A stretch of DNA of 37,619 nt from an uncultured Candidatus Saccharibacteria bacterium (GTDB lineage Bacteria > Patescibacteriota > Doudnabacteria > UBA920), in assembly GCA_964524735.1 (NCBI GenBank), contig CAZGCV010000003.1:7637-45255 (forward strand). The letters run 5' to 3'. The notes beneath the pieces are model-generated. The model was not told the DNA's origin. It did no database searches and saw only the letters and a list, made by a program, of their open reading frames with translations. The position numbers and the translations under genes are program-made. Positions within the stretch are counted from its first letter, which is position 1; each line of letters starts with the position of its first letter. This document shows, in pieces, positions 8,131-31,025 of this stretch.

Positions 8131-9915
8131 ATGAATAAAACTACTGCAGAAAAAATTACATTATTAAACCAGCTGACTTTACAATCTTTAGGGGAGCATG
8201 ACAAGTTGAAGTTGGTTAAAAATTTTACTGAAGCGAGCATACAAATTATGGCCGCTGATTTTGGATTTGCTTGGTGGCAGCCAGCTGCAGATGCTGAATA
8301 CCAGCTAGTATATAAAAGCGACAATATTCCGTATGATCCAAATCCGCCCCGTGATCGTGGCGGTAATTATCAAGCTAGTGTAACTGGCTCTCCTGTGTTT
8401 GTAGAAGATACTTCAAAAGAAGATTACGAAGAAGAGTACGATGTCCGTCCGTATATGAAAAGCTATGTCATTATACCGATTGTTTATGAAGAACAGTTCT
8501 ATGGTAATGTTGTGCTTTGTTATGCTAATAAAAATAATTTCGATGAAGACGATCATAGTTTGGCAGAAGCGCTAGGTAATGCTATGGCCCAGTCTTTAAC
8601 TATTAGTCGATTGTATCATAAGTTGAATACAATGGCGTATTATGATCAGCTTACAGGTTTGCCAAACCGTTCATTGCTTAGCGAACGTTTGGTAGAAGCG
8701 CATGCTAAAGCTGAAGAAGATAAAAGCATGTTTGCTTTGTTTTTTGTAGATTTGGACCGGTTTAAAATTATAAACGACATTTATGGGCACCACATGGGCG
8801 ATCTGCTACTAAAGCAAGTAGCTGAGCGTATGCAAAAAGTAGTGCCTGCGAAAGCAACTCTCGCCAGAATGGGTGGCGATGAGTTTTTGGTATTGCTTCC
8901 GAATATTGATACTGTAGACGAAGCAAACCGTTGCGCGGTTGAAATGCAAAATATTTTTACTGAATATTTTGAACTGAATGAACATGAAATTTATTGTAAT
9001 GGATCAGTTGGGTTTGCAATTTATCCATTGGACGGAGTTGATAGGCATACTTTGTTGAAGCATGCAGATTTGGCTTTGCATCGAGCGAAGGAACATGGTG
9101 GCGGAAATATACAGCAGTATAGAATGGGGCAGCCACTGTTTTACACTATGCAGCCAAAATTGCAAAGCCAGCTTCGCAGAGCCATCAAGAATAATGAACT
9201 TGTTTTGCACTACCAACCAATTTTAAATTTGAAAACGAAAAAAATTATAGGCAGCGAGGCTCTTATTCGATGGAACCATCCGGAGATGGGATTGTTGATG
9301 CCTGGCGAATTCATTGGGCAAGCTGAAGAATCAGGATTGATTGTGCAAATTGGAGAGTGGGTTATTGAGGAAGTCTGCAGACAAATTAATGAATGGGAAT
9401 CAGCAGGAATACCTGCAGCTCCAGTGAGTATAAATATTTCTCCTCGGGAATTGTTGCGGCCTTCCTTGGTAAGCGGAATTGAGGAGTGTTTGAAAAAATA
9501 TAATGTTCCACCTTCGCAAATTAAAGTTGAACTCACAGAAACTTTTTTGATGAAGAATATAGATTTATCTATTTCTATTTTAGATCAGCTCCGCGCACTT
9601 GGATTAAGGATTCTTATTGATGACTTCGGAACAGGTTACGCATCTTTAAATTATTTAAAACGCTTGCCGATTAACGCAGTTAAAATAGATAAAACTTTCA
9701 CGCAAGGTGTACCAAATAGTCTGCAAGATGCGGCTTTGACATCAGCGATTATTGCTATATCTCATCAACTTGGATTGGAAGTAGTGGGCGAAGGGGTTGA
9801 AAACTCTGATCAGTATGAATTCCTGCGAGCGGCTCAATGCAATTACGGACAGGGTTATTTTTTCCACAAGCCGCTATCAGCTGAAGAATTTGCTAAATTA
9901 TTTTCCCACAAATAA
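8131..9915 (+). CDS. GAF-like sensor / GGDEF diguanylate cyclase / EAL phosphodiesterase
   Basis: Intact GGDEF (ARMGGDEFLVLL). EAL-domain motifs are also intact: SEALIRW, DDFGTGYASL, KIDKTF, EGVE and QGYFF. No TM helices. Confidence 0.9.
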   Translation: MNKTTAEKITLLNQLTLQSLGEHDKLKLVKNFTEASIQIMAADFGFAWWQPAADAEYQLVYKSDNIPYDPNPPRDRGGNYQASVTGSPVFVEDTSKEDYEEEYDVRPYMKSYVIIPIVYEEQFYGNVVLCYANKNNFDEDDHSLAEALGNAMAQSLTISRLYHKLNTMAYYDQLTGLPNRSLLSERLVEAHAKAEEDKSMFALFFVDLDRFKIINDIYGHHMGDLLLKQVAERMQKVVPAKATLARMGGDEFLVLLPNIDTVDEANRCAVEMQNIFTEYFELNEHEIYCNGSVGFAIYPLDGVDRHTLLKHADLALHRAKEHGGGNIQQYRMGQPLFYTMQPKLQSQLRRAIKNNELVLHYQPILNLKTKKIIGSEALIRWNHPEMGLLMPGEFIGQAEESGLIVQIGEWVIEEVCRQINEWESAGIPAAPVSINISPRELLRPSLVSGIEECLKKYNVPPSQIKVELTETFLMKNIDLSISILDQLRALGLRILIDDFGTGYASLNYLKRLPINAVKIDKTFTQGVPNSLQDAALTSAIIAISHQLGLEVVGEGVENSDQYEFLRAAQCNYGQGYFFHKPLSAEEFAKLFSHK

Positions 9916-12695: not shown

Positions 12696-13259
12696 TTATT
12701 TAATTGCCTTAACTAAACCTCGTAAAATTTCTGCTTCGTATTCGCAATCAACTAAGGCATCGTGTCGTCCCTCTGCTTTTTTAACCCCTAACTTTTTGCC
12801 TACATCTTCCAATGTAAAACCGGCAAACTTTTTGCGATTGTTAAGAGATTTGTGTTTCGCCATATAGAAATAGCAAAGCGGCCACAAATTGAAAGTGTAT
12901 TGTACTGTGAACGGATATTTCATTTTTACGCTGCGGAAAGCAGCGGGGAAAAAGATTATATCTAAATTCCCGCCGTACATTGTTGGAGTAACATCTGAAC
13001 CAAAAGTCTGGTTAAACTGCTTTAAGACAGTTTTCATGTCCGGGGCATCCTTTAGCTGGTCCCATTTAATTTTGTTAACTGACATTGCTTCTGGGTCACG
13101 CTTTGCCCAGCGTTTTGGCTTAACATAAGTTGCAAAAGATTTCTTTTGCTTTAAAGTCTTTTTGTCTAATAATATTGCAGCGATCTGAATTATTTCGTGC
13201 TTTGTTACATCTAGCCCTGTGCATTCCAGATCGAATAGTAAAATATCTTTTTTGAACAT
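12696..13259 (-). CDS. DEDDh (DnaQ-like) 3'-5' exonuclease
   Basis: Exo I LLFDLECTGLD and Exo III RHDALVD (H-x4-D). 187 aa. Confidence 0.65.
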   Translation of the reverse strand: MFKKDILLFDLECTGLDVTKHEIIQIAAILLDKKTLKQKKSFATYVKPKRWAKRDPEAMSVNKIKWDQLKDAPDMKTVLKQFNQTFGSDVTPTMYGGNLDIIFFPAAFRSVKMKYPFTVQYTFNLWPLCYFYMAKHKSLNNRKKFAGFTLEDVGKKLGVKKAEGRHDALVDCEYEAEILRGLVKAIK

Positions 13260-13272
13260 ATGAATATATTAA

Positions 13273-13806
13273 TTATCCGTTTACAATCTTGCGAAAAACT
13301 TCTGCTGACAAACGGGCTTTTTCTAAAGCGTTATGGGGATTTTTCAGCTTTAAGTTAAAGTGGCTAAATAAAGTTTCCATGGTGGGCATCTTTTTTAATC
13401 CATAATGCAAAGTATAGACATATCCTAAAGACCATATATCAAGAACATGACCATGATATTCAAAAGGAATCAAGTTTTTCTTAAAAGCTTGCTTTAAAAA
13501 TTGGACATTATTTACAGTGTGGGTTGCTAATAGGGGTTCATGGCCAAATTTCTTTGCAAAGTCACGAATAACATCATTTGCTTTAGGACTACGTTTTAAT
13601 TCTTCATAAGGGATTTGCAGCATGCCAGCGTGTTGCGCAATTGTATTTTCTAAAAAGCTTGCCTTAATGTATGAGTTAAAAAAGTTTTTTTCTAGCAAAT
13701 TGTCCTTGTCTAAAAGAACAGCAGATAATTGAAGAATAGAATCTCTTTCAATATTTGGTCCAGTTGTTTCAATCTGAAACAATAATATATCTTTAATGAA
13801 CTTCAT
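13273..13806 (-). CDS. DnaQ-like exonuclease paralogue with degenerate catalytic motifs
   Basis: It aligns with the neighbour (KDILLF[D/Q][L/I]E[C/T]TG; I[I/L]Q[I/L][A/S]A[I/V]LLDK). However, Exo I reads FQIETTG (Asp replaced by Gln) and Exo III reads HNALEK (Asp replaced by Lys). Start set to the ATG at 13806, 4 nt after the def stop, with GGAG 13 nt upstream. The track start at 13827 is a TTG inside def. Confidence 0.5.
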   Translation of the reverse strand: MKFIKDILLFQIETTGPNIERDSILQLSAVLLDKDNLLEKNFFNSYIKASFLENTIAQHAGMLQIPYEELKRSPKANDVIRDFAKKFGHEPLLATHTVNNVQFLKQAFKKNLIPFEYHGHVLDIWSLGYVYTLHYGLKKMPTMETLFSHFNLKLKNPHNALEKARLSAEVFRKIVNG

Positions 13807-13810
13807 TGCG

Positions 13811-14308
13811 TTACTGTTTCTCCGCAAAAGTTGGAAGCAGATTTTCTCCAGTGGTGACTTTTTCCAGCTTGTCGTAAATTAAAGTATTGTTCAGATGATC
13901 AATTTCATGTTGAAGTACGCGAGCAAGAAAAGTGTCATCAGTAATTGTGAATTTTTCTCCTTCCATATTGTAAGCTTCAACGGTAATTTTTTTAGGACGT
14001 TTAACAACGCCAAAAACTCCAGGCATAGACAGACACCCTTCTTCCATTTCTTCTGTGTCTCGAGAGGACTTTATAATCTTCGGATTGATAATAGGGAATG
14101 GGGGGATGCCTGCGTCTTCCAGGTAGATGATAGCTAAGTTTAAATTTTTGCTTATTTGTGGCGCAGCCAAGCCAACACCGTTAGCAAATATAACAGTATC
14201 CAACATGTTTTTTATAAGTCGTAACTCTGCCTTTTTTAGGGGAAATGTTAAATCTTCAACTGGTGTGCGTAGGATTTTTGCAGGAAGTTTTGCAATCGGT
14301 AAAATCAT
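13811..14308 (-). CDS. def: peptide deformylase
   Basis: GVGLAAPQI, EGCLSMPG and HEIDHL metal-binding motifs. Confidence 0.92.
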   Translation of the reverse strand: MILPIAKLPAKILRTPVEDLTFPLKKAELRLIKNMLDTVIFANGVGLAAPQISKNLNLAIIYLEDAGIPPFPIINPKIIKSSRDTEEMEEGCLSMPGVFGVVKRPKKITVEAYNMEGEKFTITDDTFLARVLQHEIDHLNNTLIYDKLEKVTTGENLLPTFAEKQ

Positions 14309-18428: not shown

Positions 18429-19724
18429 ATGTTGAATCAGAAACTTGAAACTAAAACTATCTTAAAAATATCAGGAATAGCCGCGTTAATTGGCTTAATT
18501 AGCGTTGGTGTTTTTGTGTTGTCAGCAGAAAAATTGGTTTTTGCTCAAGCAAATCAGCGTGATGTTCTAAATGATAAAATCCAACGTTTGCAACAGCAAA
18601 TTAACGCCTATCAGCAGTCTATTAATACTACTCGTAAGCAAGGAGCTAGCTTGCAGAATGAGATCAATATTTACGATAATCAGATTGCTTCTTTAGAATT
18701 ACAAATTCAGGCAAATCAAACTCAAACTGAAGATACAAATTTGCAAATTAATGAGCTGCAAACTCAGATTGATAGACGTAAAGTTGAAATTGAAGAGAAT
18801 AAATTAATATTAGGTTCTTTGGTTCGTCAAATTGCTGAATTAGACACCAACTCTTTTGTTCAAATCGGTTTAGGTACAGATAATTTTTCTGCATTTTTGG
18901 ATCAAATTCAATATAGTAGAAGCGTGTCTCAACAGGTTTACACTTTGGTTGCAAAAATTAAAGAAATTAAATCTAAATTAGAAACTCAGCAAGCAGACTT
19001 AAAGAAATCTTTAGAAAAACTTAAAGAGCTTGCAGGTCAACTGGCAATCGCAGAAGAAGCTTTAAATGAAGACCGTACTGCTAAATCAGCATTGCTTGCG
19101 CAGACTAAAGGCGTAGAAAAAAATTATCAGAACCTTTTGAAAGGTGCTTCTGCGGAACAAGATAAAATTCAAGCTGAATTATATAATTTAGACAATGCTG
19201 CTAGAGGTCGTGCTGGTAACCCAAGTATTTCTGCTAAGAAAGGTGTATTAGCTTGGCCGATGGATGGTGTGTTAACACAAGGTTATGGAAATACTGGTTT
19301 TACTTCTTTGGGCTACAATTTTCATAATGGTATAGACGTTGCTGCTCCCGCAGGAAAACCTATTTATGCTGCAGCGGATGGTACTGTTGCGCATTGTAAT
19401 TCAAGCCAGCAAGCGTATGGAAACTGGTGTACTATTTATCATACTGTAGATACTAATAATGGTGCGAGAGATATTGTGACTTTGTATGCACATATGCGCT
19501 CATATTTAATTGCGCCTGGGCAAGCTGTAAAAATGGGTGACTTAATTGGTTATGAAGGAAACACTGGTAATACAACCCGTTTGCTTTATGGCCCAGAACG
19601 AGGTTATCATTTACACTTTACAGTGTTCGATCGTAAGGGATATACAGTAACGAAGGGATCTTATGGTAATTACTATGTGCCGTCTGGAGCAACCTATAAT
19701 CCACTTAGCTTCTTAGGAAAATGA
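18429..19724 (+). CDS. coiled-coil M23 (LytM-type) peptidoglycan endopeptidase, EnvC/PcsB-like architecture
   Basis: N-terminal anchor, about 230 aa of Q/L/E-rich coiled coil, then an M23 domain with intact HNGIDV (HxxxD) and YHLHF (HxH). Confidence 0.85.
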   Translation: MLNQKLETKTILKISGIAALIGLISVGVFVLSAEKLVFAQANQRDVLNDKIQRLQQQINAYQQSINTTRKQGASLQNEINIYDNQIASLELQIQANQTQTEDTNLQINELQTQIDRRKVEIEENKLILGSLVRQIAELDTNSFVQIGLGTDNFSAFLDQIQYSRSVSQQVYTLVAKIKEIKSKLETQQADLKKSLEKLKELAGQLAIAEEALNEDRTAKSALLAQTKGVEKNYQNLLKGASAEQDKIQAELYNLDNAARGRAGNPSISAKKGVLAWPMDGVLTQGYGNTGFTSLGYNFHNGIDVAAPAGKPIYAAADGTVAHCNSSQQAYGNWCTIYHTVDTNNGARDIVTLYAHMRSYLIAPGQAVKMGDLIGYEGNTGNTTRLLYGPERGYHLHFTVFDRKGYTVTKGSYGNYYVPSGATYNPLSFLGK

Positions 19725-20857
19725 TGAAATCCTTGGTCACAAGGCGGGTTGGTCGAATTCTACTTAGTTCATTTTTAGTGCTGCAGATTTTTTTGGGACA
19801 AGCAGGGCAACTTGTTTTTCCAGTGCAGCAGGCGCAGGCGCAAGGGTTACTAAATCCTTTGGATCCTGATGTGCCTAGGACAAACGTTGAAGTCCCACAA
19901 TACACTGGGCGAGGCGTTGAAGAAAGTATTAAAGCATATTTGTGTGTTCCTGATGAATCAAATTTAGGAACGGCTTTGTATACATGTATAACAAAGTTAT
20001 ATAGATTTGGTATTGCTTTTGGTTCTATTGCTTTGGTGTTCTTTGTTGTTTACGCTGGCTATATTTATATGACTGGTGGTGAAGCTGCTAAGAAGAAGGC
20101 TAAAAGCGGTTTATTTAGTTCGTTAATAGGAATGGGTGTTATTTTGTCGAGTTTCGTTTTACTCAGTTTTATTAACCCAGAACTCATTAGGATAAAACCA
20201 ATTCAACCGCCAATTTTTACTGCTAGTAGCTTACCTTCCTGTGAGTCTGTTGGCTTTGGTGCAAATTGTATTTTACCTAGCGGGCAGGTTCATTATGCGG
20301 GTGGTAGTGGGGGCGGTGCAACTGGGAATATGCGACAGTGGCAGGCGCTTATTACTACTAATGCTCAAGCACAGGGAATCGAATATTGCGCATTGTATGC
20401 TCTAGTAGAATTAGAATCATCTGCTAATCATTTGATAGTTTCTAATGGACCTCCTCGTACTGTTAACCCTAATCATTCTGATAAAAAGTTTTATGGCTTA
20501 CCTTTTACTCGTGCTGCTACAGGAAGCTCTATTAGAGGGCATGGGATAGGATTGGGACAAATTTTTATTTATGGGCCACCAGGTGGGCCTAGTAATGATA
20601 GATGGCCAGACCCTAGTACTCCGTCTAGAGGTGGTAGGGAGTTTGGATTTGATCGAGCATTAACAATAACTGATTTAATTAATCCTGACACAAACTTAAA
20701 GGCTGCGGCTTATCACTTTGCTAAAGTGAAAATGAGAAACGTAGCACCTGGTAATTACTCACAAGGATACGCTAATTATCATGGGGCTGGTTCTATTAAT
20801 GGTATTAATGTAAAAGAAATTTACCAAACCAAGTATTTAAGATGCAAAGGTTCATAA
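19721..20857 (+). CDS. signal peptide + VirB2/TrbC-pilin-like two-helix module fused to an SLT-type lytic transglycosylase domain
   Basis: Signal peptide ending AQA-QG, then a Cys pair (C75, C89). Two hydrophobic helices are separated by the basic loop TGGEAAKKKAKSG. The C-terminus carries ALVELESSANH (catalytic Glu-Ser), GIGLGQI and NPDTNLKAAAYHF, matching the SLT pattern. ATGA overlap with the M23 gene. Confidence 0.6.
   Translation: MMKSLVTRRVGRILLSSFLVLQIFLGQAGQLVFPVQQAQAQGLLNPLDPDVPRTNVEVPQYTGRGVEESIKAYLCVPDESNLGTALYTCITKLYRFGIAFGSIALVFFVVYAGYIYMTGGEAAKKKAKSGLFSSLIGMGVILSSFVLLSFINPELIRIKPIQPPIFTASSLPSCESVGFGANCILPSGQVHYAGGSGGGATGNMRQWQALITTNAQAQGIEYCALYALVELESSANHLIVSNGPPRTVNPNHSDKKFYGLPFTRAATGSSIRGHGIGLGQIFIYGPPGGPSNDRWPDPSTPSRGGREFGFDRALTITDLINPDTNLKAAAYHFAKVKMRNVAPGNYSQGYANYHGAGSINGINVKEIYQTKYLRCKGS
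19844..20272 (+). repeat. conserved N-terminal module, copy 1 (diverged paralogous duplication with 21454..21876)
   Basis: By manual alignment the ~90-aa core YRFGIAFG...KPIQPPIF...LPSC has about two-thirds identical residues between the two proteins. DNA similarity is visible (tatagatttggtattgcttttgg vs tatagatttggaattgcattcgg). Confidence 0.6.
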
Positions 20858-20858
20858 T

Positions 20859-21371
20859 ATGTTTGATTATATAAAGTCACATTTACATATAATACTTATT
20901 ATTCTAATAATTGTATTTTTATTGATTACAATTGTTGTGTTTTTTATGCCAGCAAATCAAACAACAAATGTGAATGTAGATCAAATAACTCCAGCCGATG
21001 TTGTGGTGTTGAATGAAAATTTATCAGCTGAACAAAAATCTGCAAGTTTAGCAGCATTAGACTATTTATATACTTACGGAAACTACTCCTACGAAGATAA
21101 TAGATTGCAAAGTCTGGATGGTAATGTTACTTCAAGAATGTCTTCATTAGTAAATAATTTAGCGAATGAAATTAATAATAATCCAGATAAATTTTCTACA
21201 TTAGCTCCTGTTAGCGAAAATTACAAAGTTGAATTATCAGGTGATTCAGCAACTGTTACTATACCCGCTATACTGAGTAATAATGAAGTTCAAAATAAGT
21301 CAGTGTTAACACTGGTTACTCTTAAAATGGTTAATTCTTATTGGGTATTAGATGGCTTTGATGTTAACTAG
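20859..21371 (+). CDS. bitopic membrane protein (N-terminal TM anchor + ~135-aa extracytoplasmic domain), unknown function
   Basis: 170 aa. The hydrophobic segment IILIILIIVFLLITIVVFF lies near the N-terminus. Starts 1 nt after the upstream stop and overlaps the downstream gene by 20 nt. Confidence 0.5.
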   Translation: MFDYIKSHLHIILIILIIVFLLITIVVFFMPANQTTNVNVDQITPADVVVLNENLSAEQKSASLAALDYLYTYGNYSYEDNRLQSLDGNVTSRMSSLVNNLANEINNNPDKFSTLAPVSENYKVELSGDSATVTIPAILSNNEVQNKSVLTLVTLKMVNSYWVLDGFDVN

Positions 21372-22353
21372 ATTAAAACAAATATTATTTATTGTCTTGA
21401 TTGCTTTAACACTGGCTAATCCTGTGTTGGCTTTAGCGCAGTCTCAATCACCTGGGTTAGTGAATCCTATTAATCCGCAAGTGCAGACTACAAATGTAGA
21501 TGTGCCGGTTTATCAAAACGTGCAGCAAAGCGTTACAAACTTTTTGTGTACCCCAAGTGAAAATCCCGATGGGCGTGATTTAGAAAGATGTATTAATAAA
21601 GTTTATAGATTTGGAATTGCATTCGGTGCAATCGCTTTAGTATTTTTTGTCGTATTGGCTGGGTACTATTACATTACGGGAGGGGAAAACGGTAAAGGTA
21701 AGGCTAAAGGTATTGTTCAGAATTCTTTAGTAGGTATGGGGTTGTTACTTGGAAGTTATGTGTTGCTTAGATTTATTAATCCAGACTTAGTTGTATTTAA
21801 ACCAATCCAACCGCCAATTTTTTCTGCAGAAGATTTGCCTTCATGTGATGAGATTGGGTTGGGTAATGATTGTGTGATTGTGGCTAGCACTGAGGAGCAA
21901 ACTGATGGTAATACAGGTACTGGCGGTGGTAGTTATGCTGATTGCTCTGGAGGGGTTATACCTATTAGTGGCATACCTAGAGCTGGTAGCGGCACAAGAA
22001 TATGTAAAGAGCTTTCTGATAAAATGGTTCCTTTATTAGCTCAGTTTAAATCGCAAGCGCCTGGTTATTATTTCGCTATATCATCAACTATTAGAAACAC
22101 TAGAGCGGAAAGTAGATGTCACTATGACGGAAACTCAAAAAGCGGAAACTGCGCTGATACTGTTTTAAGAACCACTGCTGGTGCTAAAGTTCCTGGAAGC
22201 AACCCTGCGTGGGGTACTCTTTGCAGGTTGCTGCTCGGTGCTGGGTTATCATTGGCTAATGAAACTGGTTCAGCACATCAAGGTTGTAGAAACCCAACAT
22301 CGTATCAATTTACTAATGGGGCTCATTTCCATGTATATGTACCAGGTAGATAA
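21352..22353 (+). CDS. signal peptide + the same pilin-like two-helix module fused to a Cys-rich, LAS/M15-like putative zinc peptidase domain
   Basis: Signal peptide ending ALA-QS. The N-module is paralogous to 19721..20857. The C-terminus has SSTIRNTRAESRCH...GNCAD...GAHFHVYV, resembling the S.R...H...D...H.H arrangement of LAS (M15/Hedgehog-type) metallopeptidases. The start could also be the ATG at 21361. Confidence 0.45.
   Translation: MALMLTRLKQILFIVLIALTLANPVLALAQSQSPGLVNPINPQVQTTNVDVPVYQNVQQSVTNFLCTPSENPDGRDLERCINKVYRFGIAFGAIALVFFVVLAGYYYITGGENGKGKAKGIVQNSLVGMGLLLGSYVLLRFINPDLVVFKPIQPPIFSAEDLPSCDEIGLGNDCVIVASTEEQTDGNTGTGGGSYADCSGGVIPISGIPRAGSGTRICKELSDKMVPLLAQFKSQAPGYYFAISSTIRNTRAESRCHYDGNSKSGNCADTVLRTTAGAKVPGSNPAWGTLCRLLLGAGLSLANETGSAHQGCRNPTSYQFTNGAHFHVYVPGR
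21454..21876 (+). repeat. conserved N-terminal module, copy 2
   Basis: See 19844..20272. Similarity stops abruptly after the conserved LPSC-x7-C loop. Confidence 0.6.
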
Positions 22354-29417: not shown

Positions 29418-30332
29418 TTATTTTTGCAAGTATTTGCGCATTGCTAATACGCTAGAAATAGTACTCAAAGTGAAAGCAATCAGTAATTGAATTAATACCA
29501 AGACAAAGAATATTGCTAAGTTTCCTGTGAATGTAGCACCTGATGATGTTAGATATACGCTTATTCTTGGTAATAATCCTGTATATACAGGGAAGAGTAG
29601 AGAGCTTGTAATTATAGTCGCAAGAATGCTATAAATTAATGCTTCAATAATAAACGGTCCTCGAATATACCAATTCGTAGCACCAACTAAACGCATGATC
29701 TCTACTTCTTCTTTGCGGTTATAAATTGTCAAAGTAATTGTATTGAATATTACCAAAACTGCAATTGAAGAAAATACTGCAATTAAAATTATTCCAACAG
29801 TGATGATGAATTTTAAGAGGTTGTTAAGACGATCTATTAAGACTCGATTGTCTTCAAAGTTTACTTTTTCAATTGCCGCACTATAACGTTCTTCGCCAAG
29901 CATTTTAGCTACTTCTGGATAATCCTCTAATTTTGTAGCTTTAATTTGCAGTGTTGCAGGCAAAGGATTTTCATTCAACTCGCTAACAGATTCCAAAAGT
30001 AATGGGTCATTTTGGTGATCTTGTTTAAATTTAGCAAGAGCTTCTTCTGCAGATACATAGCGTACCTGCTCAATTCGGCTATCTTGTTGTATTTGATCAC
30101 GAATCACAAAAATCTGACTTTCCGCTAAGCCATTTTTAAAGTAAGCGGAAATATCTACACGCTCTTGAATAGTTTTAACAGAAGAGTTCGTAATTACGAA
30201 AAGCAAAGAAAGCACTGAAAGAATAATCAGTGTAATTGTCATGATGAGTGTAGACGCACTTGCCAGCCAAAGATTTCGGCGGAAGTTAGTCAAACCCATT
30301 TTAATAATTCGGAAAAATGAAATAAAGTTCAT
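29418..30332 (-). CDS. ftsX: cell-division ABC transporter permease-like protein FtsX
   Basis: Four TM helices with a large first extracytoplasmic loop, plus the conserved EVEIMRLVGATNWYIRGPF segment. Confidence 0.85.
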   Translation of the reverse strand: MNFISFFRIIKMGLTNFRRNLWLASASTLIMTITLIILSVLSLLFVITNSSVKTIQERVDISAYFKNGLAESQIFVIRDQIQQDSRIEQVRYVSAEEALAKFKQDHQNDPLLLESVSELNENPLPATLQIKATKLEDYPEVAKMLGEERYSAAIEKVNFEDNRVLIDRLNNLLKFIITVGIILIAVFSSIAVLVIFNTITLTIYNRKEEVEIMRLVGATNWYIRGPFIIEALIYSILATIITSSLLFPVYTGLLPRISVYLTSSGATFTGNLAIFFVLVLIQLLIAFTLSTISSVLAMRKYLQK

Positions 30333-30347
30333 TGAGGTTAGACGGCT

Positions 30348-31025
30348 TTATAGTTTGTACTTGCCTTTTTGCTGTTCCAGAGTAATCTGGCCGCCTTCGA
30401 TTGTTATTACACGTTTGTTTATTTTGTTTACCAGTTCCGCTGCATGAGTTGCTAGTAGTACAGTAGTTCCAAGTTTGTTTATTTTGAGCAATAAATCTAA
30501 AACTTCAGCGGCATTTTCTGGATCTAGGTTACCTGTCGGCTCATCTGCTAATAGTAAAACAGGACGATGTGCTAATGATCGAGCGATTGCAACACGCTGA
30601 CGTTCCCCACCAGACATTTCATGAGGAAAGGAATCTTTTTTATGTAATAGTCCTACTAGTTCTAAAATTTTTGGAACATCTTTATTGATGCGATCTTTTG
30701 TATGTCCAGAAACTTCCATTGCAAAAGCAACATTTTCAAATGCTGTACGACGAGGTAAAAGCTTGATATCTTGAAACACCATTCCGATCTTACGACGAAG
30801 ATAAGGAAGGTCAGACTTTTTTACACGAGTCATATCTATTTCATCAATAAGAATACGCCCATCGTCTACAATTTCTTCGCCGATGAGCATTTTCATTAAG
30901 GTAGATTTACCAGCGCCAGACATTCCTACAACAGAAATAAACTCCCCATGGTTAATGTGGAGGTTGATATTATTCAAAGCTTTATTTTTGCCGTAGTATT
31001 TTGTTACGTTGTCGAATCGAATCAT
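30348..31025 (-). CDS. ftsE: cell-division ATP-binding protein FtsE
   Basis: Walker A GMSGAGKST, signature MSGGERQR, Walker B VLLADEPTGNLD. 225 aa, immediately upstream of ftsX. Confidence 0.92.
   Translation of the reverse strand: MIRFDNVTKYYGKNKALNNINLHINHGEFISVVGMSGAGKSTLMKMLIGEEIVDDGRILIDEIDMTRVKKSDLPYLRRKIGMVFQDIKLLPRRTAFENVAFAMEVSGHTKDRINKDVPKILELVGLLHKKDSFPHEMSGGERQRVAIARSLAHRPVLLLADEPTGNLDPENAAEVLDLLLKINKLGTTVLLATHAAELVNKINKRVITIEGGQITLEQQKGKYKL

Follow-up and report, generated by a model that had tools for sequence, protein, structure and literature searches.

The 37,619-nt stretch of DNA analyzed here (the window), from contig CAZGCV010000003.1 of an uncultured Candidatus Saccharibacteria bacterium (a group of ultrasmall bacteria that depend on a host), encodes two neighboring proteins, p1 and p2, which share an N-terminal module and carry unrelated enzymes at their C-termini. 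Judged by profile comparison, the module is a divergent VirB2/T4SS_pilin-type hairpin, homologous to the pilins of the type IV secretion systems (T4SSs), and the tails are predicted wall hydrolases, that is, a family-1 lytic transglycosylase in p1 and a LAS-type zinc peptidase in p2. The two genes belong to an array that occupies the same chromosomal slot in related genomes, where the enzymes attached to the module differ. The family is probably (with a probability of roughly 0.6) a surface-displayed and species-specific arsenal of wall hydrolases, in which a T4SS-pilin-type module for targeting or assembly carries the enzymes, and recombination at a fixed joint reshuffles them.

A Conserved Module with Unrelated Tails

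The similarity between the two proteins is confined to their N-terminal parts. In a BLASTP comparison with composition correction, residues 4-185 of p1 align with residues 2-176 of p2 at 49% identity over approximately 180 residues (E 2e-58), which is the sole significant segment, and nothing further is found below E 6.9. The first-pass annotation of this DNA had proposed the homology of the N-terminal parts, with about two-thirds of the residues identical in a 90-aa core, the conservation of both Cys pairs, and an abrupt end of the similarity after the second Cys loop, beyond which the C-terminal halves could not be aligned. The alignment bears out each of these points. The core, which runs from YRFGIAFG and includes the second Cys of the loop as its last residue, is gapless and identical at 59 of its 90 positions (65.6%), the Cys pairs lie at C75/C89 and C174/C183 in p1 and at C66/C80 and C165/C174 in p2, with all four Cys invariant in an alignment of 34 module sequences, and the similarity stops at residue 185 of p1. 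The loop, which had been described as C-x7-C, is one residue longer, i.e., C-x8-C. The p2 tail matches the tail class of p1 with a profile-profile (hhalign) probability of only 0.2%, and the folds differ, a lytic transglycosylase in one and a Hedgehog/DD-peptidase in the other. The possibility that the tails are divergent homologues that a proper alignment would unite is ruled out by this comparison.

The module has a constant order of parts, with a signal peptide ending in A-x-A, a segment with the first Cys pair, two hydrophobic helices with a Lys-rich loop between them, the FINP..KPIQPPIF stretch, the C-x8-C loop, and a Gly-rich linker. The hydrophobic stretches of p1 span residues 13-31, 92-118, and 129-158, and the AF2 model places its helices at 82-118 and 121-151. 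The layout of the T4SS_pilin proteins, in which a cleavable signal peptide precedes two hydrophobic helices with a short charged loop between them, is thus predicted in both p1 and p2. The 34-sequence alignment contains 21 invariant columns overall, including the loop residues E80, K83, and K87, with G79 being nearly invariant. Among relatives of the same tail class, the N-terminal part is 49-67% identical, in comparison with 28-51% for the enzyme tail. The hairpin and its loop are therefore more conserved than the enzymes, which suggests a module that is recognized or assembled, rather than a passive membrane anchor.

The positive-inside rule and the analogy with VirB2 would place both termini of the hairpin on the outer face, and thus the enzyme domains outside the membrane. 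A DsbA-like thioredoxin gene is found inside the array of one related locus, L007 (11507-12211; the whole gene, encoding a membrane-anchored protein), and another directly 5' of the array gene in L012 (1-618). These neighbors fit with the formation of disulfides in the Cys-rich extracytoplasmic parts.

The relationship with the T4SS pilins emerges from profile searches. A hidden Markov model (HMM) of the module, run exhaustively with HMMER on 1.84 billion cluster representatives, recovers 12,690 proteins at E<=1e-3 and 85 at E<=1e-30. Word-indexed searching is insensitive for this module, given that a single query returned one truncated relative, and the 34-sequence alignment returned 15 proteins, most of them short or partial. 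The module HMM reaches P0093 with an E value of 4.7e-29, a protein with three repeats of PF18895 (T4SS_pilin; 96.5 bits in Pfam), and three relatives from the array slot exceed the Pfam cut-off of 26.6 bits for this family (P0139 at 31.9, one from L021 at 28.1, and one from L020 at 26.9 bits). The module is therefore best regarded as homologous to the T4SS pilins but divergent. In NCBIfam, it has a weak match to a mycoplasma pilin-like family of conjugal transfer proteins. Searches of the PDB sequences with the N-module, the tails of p1 and p2, and the small gene between them (pm) returned nothing meaningful.

More distant relatives do lie in T4SS loci, although the p1/p2 locus itself is not part of a virB4 cluster. 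In L016 (1465-10463), genes for PrgI, a TraC-like protein, and VirB4 precede those for three large T4SS_pilin proteins, which adjoin jag, yidC, rnpA, and dnaA. In L010 (2-3217), a gene for a pilin fused to NlpC/P60 is followed by a gene for four pilin units fused to SLT (P0092), adjoining jag, yidC, and rnpA, which is the position held by the T4SS cluster in L016. The T4SS loci at dnaA/yidC in these other Patescibacteria (L016 and L010) encode multi-repeat T4SS_pilin proteins of 370-891 aa.

The p1 tail is predicted to be a family-1 lytic transglycosylase. In an alignment of 15 sequences that includes strong SLT members, E232, G277, and Q280 are invariant, and S233 and L278 are nearly so. The comparison of the p1 tail with the strong-SLT tail class gives an hhalign probability of 96.6% (E 6.5e-10). 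The Pfam SLT model (PF01464, with a cut-off of 21.3 bits) matches p1 at 14.1 bits (E 0.034), which is below the threshold, and matches P0007, of the same tail class, at 25.7 bits. The best Foldseek matches of the AF2 model are MltC, MltE, Slt70, MltF, and the g-type lysozymes, with a probability of 1.00, E values from 1.7e-3 upward, and a TM-target of approximately 0.44, in agreement with a lysozyme-like/goose-type fold; the model is of moderate quality (pLDDT 70.9, with block means of 59-96 in the tail domain).

The p2 tail appears to be a LAS-type zinc peptidase from a lineage not covered by Pfam. Its class shares the motif C-H...G-x-C-x-D...H-x-H in an alignment of 40 sequences, in which H257 and D269 are nearly invariant, and the H325-F-H327 of p2 corresponds to the H-x-H of most members. 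The LAS zinc motif, H-x(about 6)-D ... H-x-H, is present, with a spacing of x11 in p2 and of x6 in the shortest relatives, such as P0034. Foldseek matches the AF2 model (pLDDT 81.9 overall, with 10-residue block means of approximately 84-98 from residue ~200 onward) to the N-domain of Hedgehog (2wg4; E 9.2e-4, TM-target 0.56) and to the VanY-like LdcB carboxypeptidases 4jid, 4mph, and 4ox3. The tail has no match in Pfam, including the M15 models, and none among the PDB sequences, and its class matches the Peptidase_M15_4 tail class with an hhalign probability of only 0.3%.

Exchange of the Cargo at a Fixed Joint

The diversity of the cargo was assessed in 150 proteins, namely p1, p2, and 148 of the best 150 library representatives. 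A tail was defined as at least 40 aa after the module, and classes were formed by all-against-all BLAST. The first-pass annotation had reasoned that a module found only as stand-alone small pilins, or always with one fixed partner, would speak against shuffling, and the opposite pattern is observed, given that 145 of the 150 proteins carry a tail, and that at least 10 classes of tail can be distinguished. Profile comparison finds no relationship between these classes either, save for the two SLT classes and possibly c0 and c2. The tails range from 110 to 640 aa, and the Pfam domains recognized in class representatives are SLT, SLT_3 (sometimes with GDSL), glucosaminidase, CHAP, Peptidase_C39_2, NlpC/P60, Peptidase_M23, Peptidase_M15, Peptidase_M15_4, and Amidase_2. 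All of the recognizable cargo is thus composed, by domain, of peptidoglycan hydrolases. The commonest class, with 57 of the 150 proteins, is the LAS class of p2 (c0), which is defined here as a new tail class that Pfam does not recognize. The other labels used below are c5 for the weak-SLT class of p1, c1 for the SLT_3-like class, c3 for Peptidase_C39_2, c6 for Peptidase_M15_4, and c7 for CHAP.

The cargo also varies at a single chromosomal position. Nine loci from GTDB genomes, together with contigs from an exact look-up, are syntenic with the window, in the order Def, CAP, WecG/NUDIX, GltX, M23cc (a peptidase gene described below), the array, and IscS. In the Saccharibacteria metagenome-assembled genomes (MAGs), this slot holds between one and three module genes, with differing cargo (Table 1). 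Genes of class c5 hold the position of p1 in six related loci, and c0 relatives of p2 are found in L001, L003, L004, and L008. In two loci, the first gene of the M23 slot is a module without a tail (L020:9001-9540, 179 aa; L021:4807-5433, 208 aa). Small GIY-YIG nuclease genes are found directly after the array, on the opposite strand, in L005 (10209-10478(-)), L007 (14975-15280(-)), and L008 (13180-13431(-)), and there is none in the window; these nucleases may be linked to recombination at the array.

The position of the joint is well defined. In the 3,697 pairs of proteins with tails of different classes, the alignment ends at a median of eight residues past the second Cys (interquartile range 2-18), whereas in pairs of the same class, it continues for a median of 150 residues. 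The neighbor-joining tree of the N-modules is not sorted by tail class, and some nearly identical N-terminal parts carry unrelated tails. In P0099 (c0) and P0101 (c4), which are gene 2 and gene 1 of one contig, the N-terminal parts are 91% identical, in P0034 (c0) and P0037 (c3), the identity is 88.6% over residues 1-224, and in P0020 (c0) and gene 2 of L002 (c3), it is 87.7%. The earlier proposal of shuffling at a fixed junction thus gains support from the near-identity of N-parts joined to unrelated tails (88-91%), the location of the break, and the variation of the cargo in the slot.

Adjacent array genes with unrelated tails also share exact tracts within N-modules that are otherwise approximately 60% identical. 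One of these tracts, of 259 nt, is found in L007 (12359-12617 and 13489-13747), and another, of 239 nt, in L003 (11588-11826 and 12695-12933). These tracts look like the footprints of gene conversion. The p1 and p2 genes of the window themselves bear no trace of recent conversion, with the identity in 20-codon windows peaking at 73% at the nucleotide level. The position of the junction, the near-identical N-terminal parts with unrelated tails, and the exact tracts together argue that the N-modules are the substrate of recombination, and that the exchanges are probably resolved at the boundary between the Cys loop and the linker. The family would thus represent a clean natural case of domain shuffling at a defined joint, in which the footprints of recombination are still visible.

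The Operon and Its Neighborhood

Positions 18429-22353 of the window contain four open reading frames (ORFs) on the same strand, M23cc, p1, pm, and p2 (Table 1), which overlap or abut at their ends, and appear to form a single four-gene operon. The stop codon of M23cc overlaps the start codon of p1 (ATGA). A tblastn search of the window located the module in p1 and p2 only. The start of p2 is ambiguous (21352-21363). The homologues begin with MQKLKQ, and translation may therefore initiate at the ATG at 21361 (M4), which would shorten the overlap with pm.

Table 1. Features of the four-gene region, with window positions, and the gene order of the arrays in the window and in related loci.
Feature	Position	Strand	Description
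M23cc	18429..19724	+	N-terminal membrane anchor, long coiled coil, Peptidase_M23 (EnvC/PcsB-like layout; Pfam)
p1	19721..20857	+	Array gene 1 (ORF), 378 aa; pilin-module protein with predicted lytic transglycosylase
p1 N-module	19844..20278	+	aa 42-186; Cys75/Cys89 segment, helix 1 ~92-118, loop TGGEAAKKKAKSG, helix 2 ~129-158, PIQPPIF, C174-x8-C183 (nt 20240-20269)
p1 linker	20270..20329	+	aa 184-203, Gly-rich, ILPSGQVHYAGGSGGGATGNMR; similarity to p2 lost here; low pLDDT at 193-200
p1 tail	20330..20854	+	aa 204-378; lytic-transglycosylase-like domain, ~45-aa insertion between E-S and G-L-x-Q
pm	20859..21371	+	170 aa; small bitopic membrane protein with N-terminal transmembrane helix, between p1 and p2
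p2	21352..22353	+	Array gene 2 (ORF), 333 aa; pilin-module protein with predicted LAS-type zinc peptidase
p2 N-module	21454..21882	+	aa 35-177; Cys66/Cys80, helices 76-109 and 111-142 (AF2), C165-x8-C174 loop (nt 21844-21873)
p2 linker	21874..21933	+	aa 175-194, Gly/Thr-rich; pLDDT <50 at 176-191
p2 tail	21934..22350	+	aa 195-333; Cys-rich LAS (Hedgehog/DD-peptidase fold) domain, putative Zn ligands H257, D269, H327 (H325-F-H327)
Window, L001 array			c5 (SLT) - pm - c0 (LAS)
L002 array			c5 - pm - c3 (C39_2)
L003 array			c5 - pm - c6 (M15_4) - c0
L004 array			c5 - pm - c7 (CHAP) - c0
L005 array			c5 - pm - (M23+C39_2)
L007 array			c1 - pm' - DsbA - c1 - c3
L008 array			c5 - pm - c0 (long)
L014 array			Single Amidase_2 fusion
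L018 array			c1+GDSL - pm'
L020, L021 arrays			Tail-less module gene, then tailed fusion

The first gene, M23cc, matches Peptidase_M23 with an E value of 7.7e-23 in Pfam, and coiled-coil families only weakly (E 0.002-0.9), and has a hydrophobic stretch at residues 10-41. Its HxxxD and HxH motifs are intact, in an EnvC/PcsB architecture. A counterpart lies directly 5' of the array in all nine of the related loci L001-L009, with 62-84% identity, and likewise upstream in four more loci with the M23 slot (L014, L018, L020, and L021). Genes for FtsX and FtsE are located on the opposite strand at 29418-31025, 7 kb from the array, and M23cc may be a hydrolase controlled by FtsEX.

The small gene pm lies between p1 and p2, and a gene for a bitopic protein of 168-184 aa is found in the same position after array gene 1 in L001-L005, L007, L008, L011, and L018. 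These counterparts are only 14-27% identical to the pm of the window, whereas most flanking genes are 46-96% identical between the window and MAGs labeled as Candidatus Saccharibacteria. The type of pm co-varies with the tail class of gene 1, with the c5-type proteins matching one another, and the c1-type proteins of L007 and L018, the only two c1 loci, matching each other (E 1.8e-11), and having no match to the c5 type below E 0.04. This is the pattern of a cognate partner, which may be an inhibitor, an immunity factor, or a chaperone, as far as two c1 loci can indicate. A VirB8-like protein is a further possibility for pm, which has no match above noise to known immunity or inhibitor families, and only weak NTF2-like hints of fold. 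Only pm intervenes after gene 1, and array genes 2 and 3 abut or overlap, with no small gene between them.

The remaining genes of the window have housekeeping functions, encoding GltX, Def, Fmt, IscS, PyrG, ribosomal proteins, FtsEX, and two-component systems, in addition to the thymidylate genes. With flanking genes of this identity to the Saccharibacteria MAGs, the window is a piece of a Saccharibacteria (Patescibacteria/CPR) chromosome. The window also encodes a GAF-GGDEF-EAL protein (8131-9915), related to the turnover of c-di-GMP, in what is a reduced Saccharibacteria genome; the counterpart position in L008 holds a gene with EAL only. A tandem pair of divergent paralogues of the RNase_T family of exonucleases lies between fmt and def (12696-13827), and is retained in the related loci that reach across that region.

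Proposed Mechanism and Alternative Explanations

The surface arsenal would be based on a chassis that begins with a Sec signal peptide and continues with a VirB2/T4SS-pilin-type hairpin of two helices, which has a disulfide-bonded extracytoplasmic segment on either side, and with a Gly-rich linker; the enzyme would be held outside the membrane. The pilin module may act as a specific targeting or assembly unit, in common with the type IV secretion pilus pathway. The enzyme part would be exchanged, gained, or lost through homologous recombination, in which the N-modules provide the region of homology, and resolution would take place just past the C-x8-C loop. The outcome would be a species-specific set of cell-wall hydrolases on the surface of the cell. 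We infer that the T4SS or pilus machinery takes charge of the module, and that the interface between the epibiont and its host is where the enzymes are active.

A role linked to the host or to the T4SS is favored by the constraint on the module, the turnover of the cargo between close relatives, and the fusions inside T4SS loci. The essential T4SS locus of Southlakia, with similar hydrolase folds (lysozyme-like, Cys-proteinase, and Hedgehog/DD-peptidase), counts on the same side.

A number of observations weigh against the surface arsenal. Both p1 (21.5 bits) and p2 (15.3 bits) fall below the T4SS_pilin cut-off in Pfam, and there is no VirB4, VirB6, or any other T4SS gene in the 37.6-kb window. 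The EnvC/PcsB-like M23 gene that opens the operon, with FtsEX only 7 kb away, fits ordinary cell-division autolysins. A VirB2-type filament would have difficulty in accommodating a globular domain of 150-450 aa on each subunit. The 239- and 259-nt tracts, finally, are derived from metagenome assemblies, and could be artefacts.

The best of the alternatives, which is possible but somewhat doubtful, is that these proteins are housekeeping autolysins, which would remodel the cell's own wall and separate the daughter cells together with M23cc and FtsEX. The hairpin would then have been taken from a pilin gene on a single occasion to serve as an anchor, and the turnover of the cargo would reflect the redundancy of autolysins. 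This would account well for the location of the array, in a conserved housekeeping locus right behind the M23 gene, with FtsE and FtsX nearby and no T4SS gene in the window, as well as for the SLT-like class c5 found as gene 1 in most of the related genomes, and for a cargo in which every type is a classical autolysin domain. It does not lead one to expect a hairpin and loop more conserved than the enzymes, which would be surprising in a passive anchor, nor an array composition that differs among genomes with flanking genes that are 60-95% identical, nor the close relatives of the module in T4SS loci, which are also fused to hydrolases.

It is also conceivable, although unlikely, that the Saccharibacteria bear T4SS pili armed with enzymes, in which VirB2-type subunits would carry hydrolases on their outward C-termini, and cut the thick wall of the Gram-positive host. 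The fusions would be handled by the essential T4SS, and would either join the pilus, as minor subunits or at its tip, or be released by cleavage where it is assembled, and the exchange of cassettes would re-assort the cargo to follow the chemistry of the host wall. If this were true, the T4SS pilin family of the Saccharibacteria would have a definite function.

A further, less likely alternative is that p1 and p2 are precursors, in which cleavage at or after the junction between the C-x8-C loop and the Gly-rich linker would free a VirB1-like hydrolase at the site of assembly of the pilus or channel, and leave a pilin of normal size. The C-terminal processing of the TrbC/VirB2 pilins is established, and TrbC loses a C-terminal extension during its maturation. 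The sharply bounded junction followed by a flexible linker, and the tail-less modules of 179 and 208 aa in the same slot of other genomes, are in line with such a precursor, as is the lack of a recognizable VirB1 in most of the Patescibacteria genomes that have VirB2 (PMC12102498). This alternative has to contend with a window in which no gene for a maturation peptidase is seen; apart from the Cys loop, no conserved motif for cleavage was identified.

A true polymorphic toxin/immunity system, in which the hydrolases would be exported to competitors or to the host, and pm would be the cognate immunity protein or inhibitor, is improbable. The first-pass annotation had compared p1 and p2 to polymorphic effector families, and the layout is indeed similar, with a constant N-terminus, variable C-terminal enzymes, and a sharp junction, to which the rapid divergence of pm and its co-variation with the enzyme class of gene 1 can be added. 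The comparison breaks down where the system itself is concerned, given that there is no immunity-like gene for each cassette, with array genes 2 and 3 lacking any intervening small gene, the locus is of a housekeeping type with no dedicated secretion genes nearby, pm resembles no known immunity or inhibitor family, and its co-variation is derived from two c1 loci only. The label of polymorphic effector would thus describe a likeness of layout only.

Chance, the low-complexity matching of a module that is partly hydrophobic helix, or an artefact of annotation or assembly, is already refuted at the sequence level as an explanation of the similarity of p1 and p2 by the BLASTP E value obtained despite composition correction, the 21 invariant columns with their four Cys, the 85 cluster representatives at E<=1e-30, and the syntenic homologues in nine independent genome assemblies.

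Comparison with Known Systems

Arrays of VirB2-like pilins are already known in the Patescibacteria, including the Saccharibacteria (PMC12102498; PMC10633639; PMC12857230), and p1 and p2 share with the VirB2/TrbC pilins of PF18895 the signal peptide, the two hydrophobic helices, and the short charged loop, with the homology being indicated by profile searches. The array pilins are small (the pilin genes of Southlakia have 381-435 nt), and lie inside the T4SS cluster, whereas p1 and p2 have two additional disulfide segments and fused enzyme tails, and occupy a separate slot behind the M23 gene. Literature searches, which covered papers available without subscription, returned no prior description of the fusion of a pilin with a hydrolase or of its behavior as a cassette, and no mention of such fusions was found in PMC12102498, PMC10633639, or PMC12857230. 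Database names for the fusion proteins are either absent or refer to the enzyme part only.

The VirB1-like hydrolases of the Gram-positive T4SSs, such as PrgK of pCF10, TraG of pIP501, TcpG, and CD419/Orf14, are likewise membrane-anchored and modular, with SLT, CHAP or NlpC/P60, LytM/M23, and glucosaminidase domains that act on the peptidoglycan outside the membrane. The types of domain match those of the present family, of which the copies in the window lie outside any T4SS locus, and the relative P0092 at the position of the T4SS cluster in L016. Hydrolases of the PrgK/TraG/TcpG type are not known to contain a pilin hairpin, and their genes lie within the conjugation locus, whereas each enzyme of the p1/p2 family is carried on a pilin module of its own. 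In a survey of T4SSs, VirB1 homologues often had additional domains related to the wall (PMC12102498).

The polymorphic toxins, which include CdiA-CT of contact-dependent inhibition (CDI), Rhs, LXG of the type VII secretion system (T7SS), and the PAAR effectors of the type VI secretion system (T6SS), have in common with the arrays a constant N-terminal part, variable enzymes, a sharp junction, and cargo that differs at the same locus between related strains, and some of these toxin systems are known to carry cell-wall hydrolases. The arrays differ in having no immunity gene for each cassette, no orphan or silent cassettes that could be seen, and no adjacent secretion apparatus. The constant part is a two-helix membrane module in p1 and p2, and a soluble trafficking domain in the polymorphic toxins.

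Modular type IV pilins with a C-terminal functional module are also known, such as PilB and PilC of Streptococcus sanguinis, in which the modules are adhesive. In both cases, a globular module is grafted onto a pilin scaffold, and a filament would display it. These proteins belong to type IV pili, a pilin superfamily unrelated to that of the T4SS, and their modules are adhesive rather than enzymatic. The coiled-coil wall peptidases of the same phylum provide a precedent for the swapping of peptidases on a constant, membrane-anchored N-terminus, an architecture that is shared by M23cc. In this case, a coiled coil takes the place of the pilin hairpin, and only two alternative types of cargo have been described.

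A cultivated Saccharibacterium cannot grow epibiotically without the T4SS and its pilin array (PMC10633639). A perspective published in 2024 considered the role of that T4SS to be "completely unknown", and lytic transglycosylases have been proposed to breach the envelope of the host (PMC11665869). The fusion family would tie these two themes together, as a large family of interchangeable wall hydrolases on a T4SS-pilin module, with predictions that can be tested.

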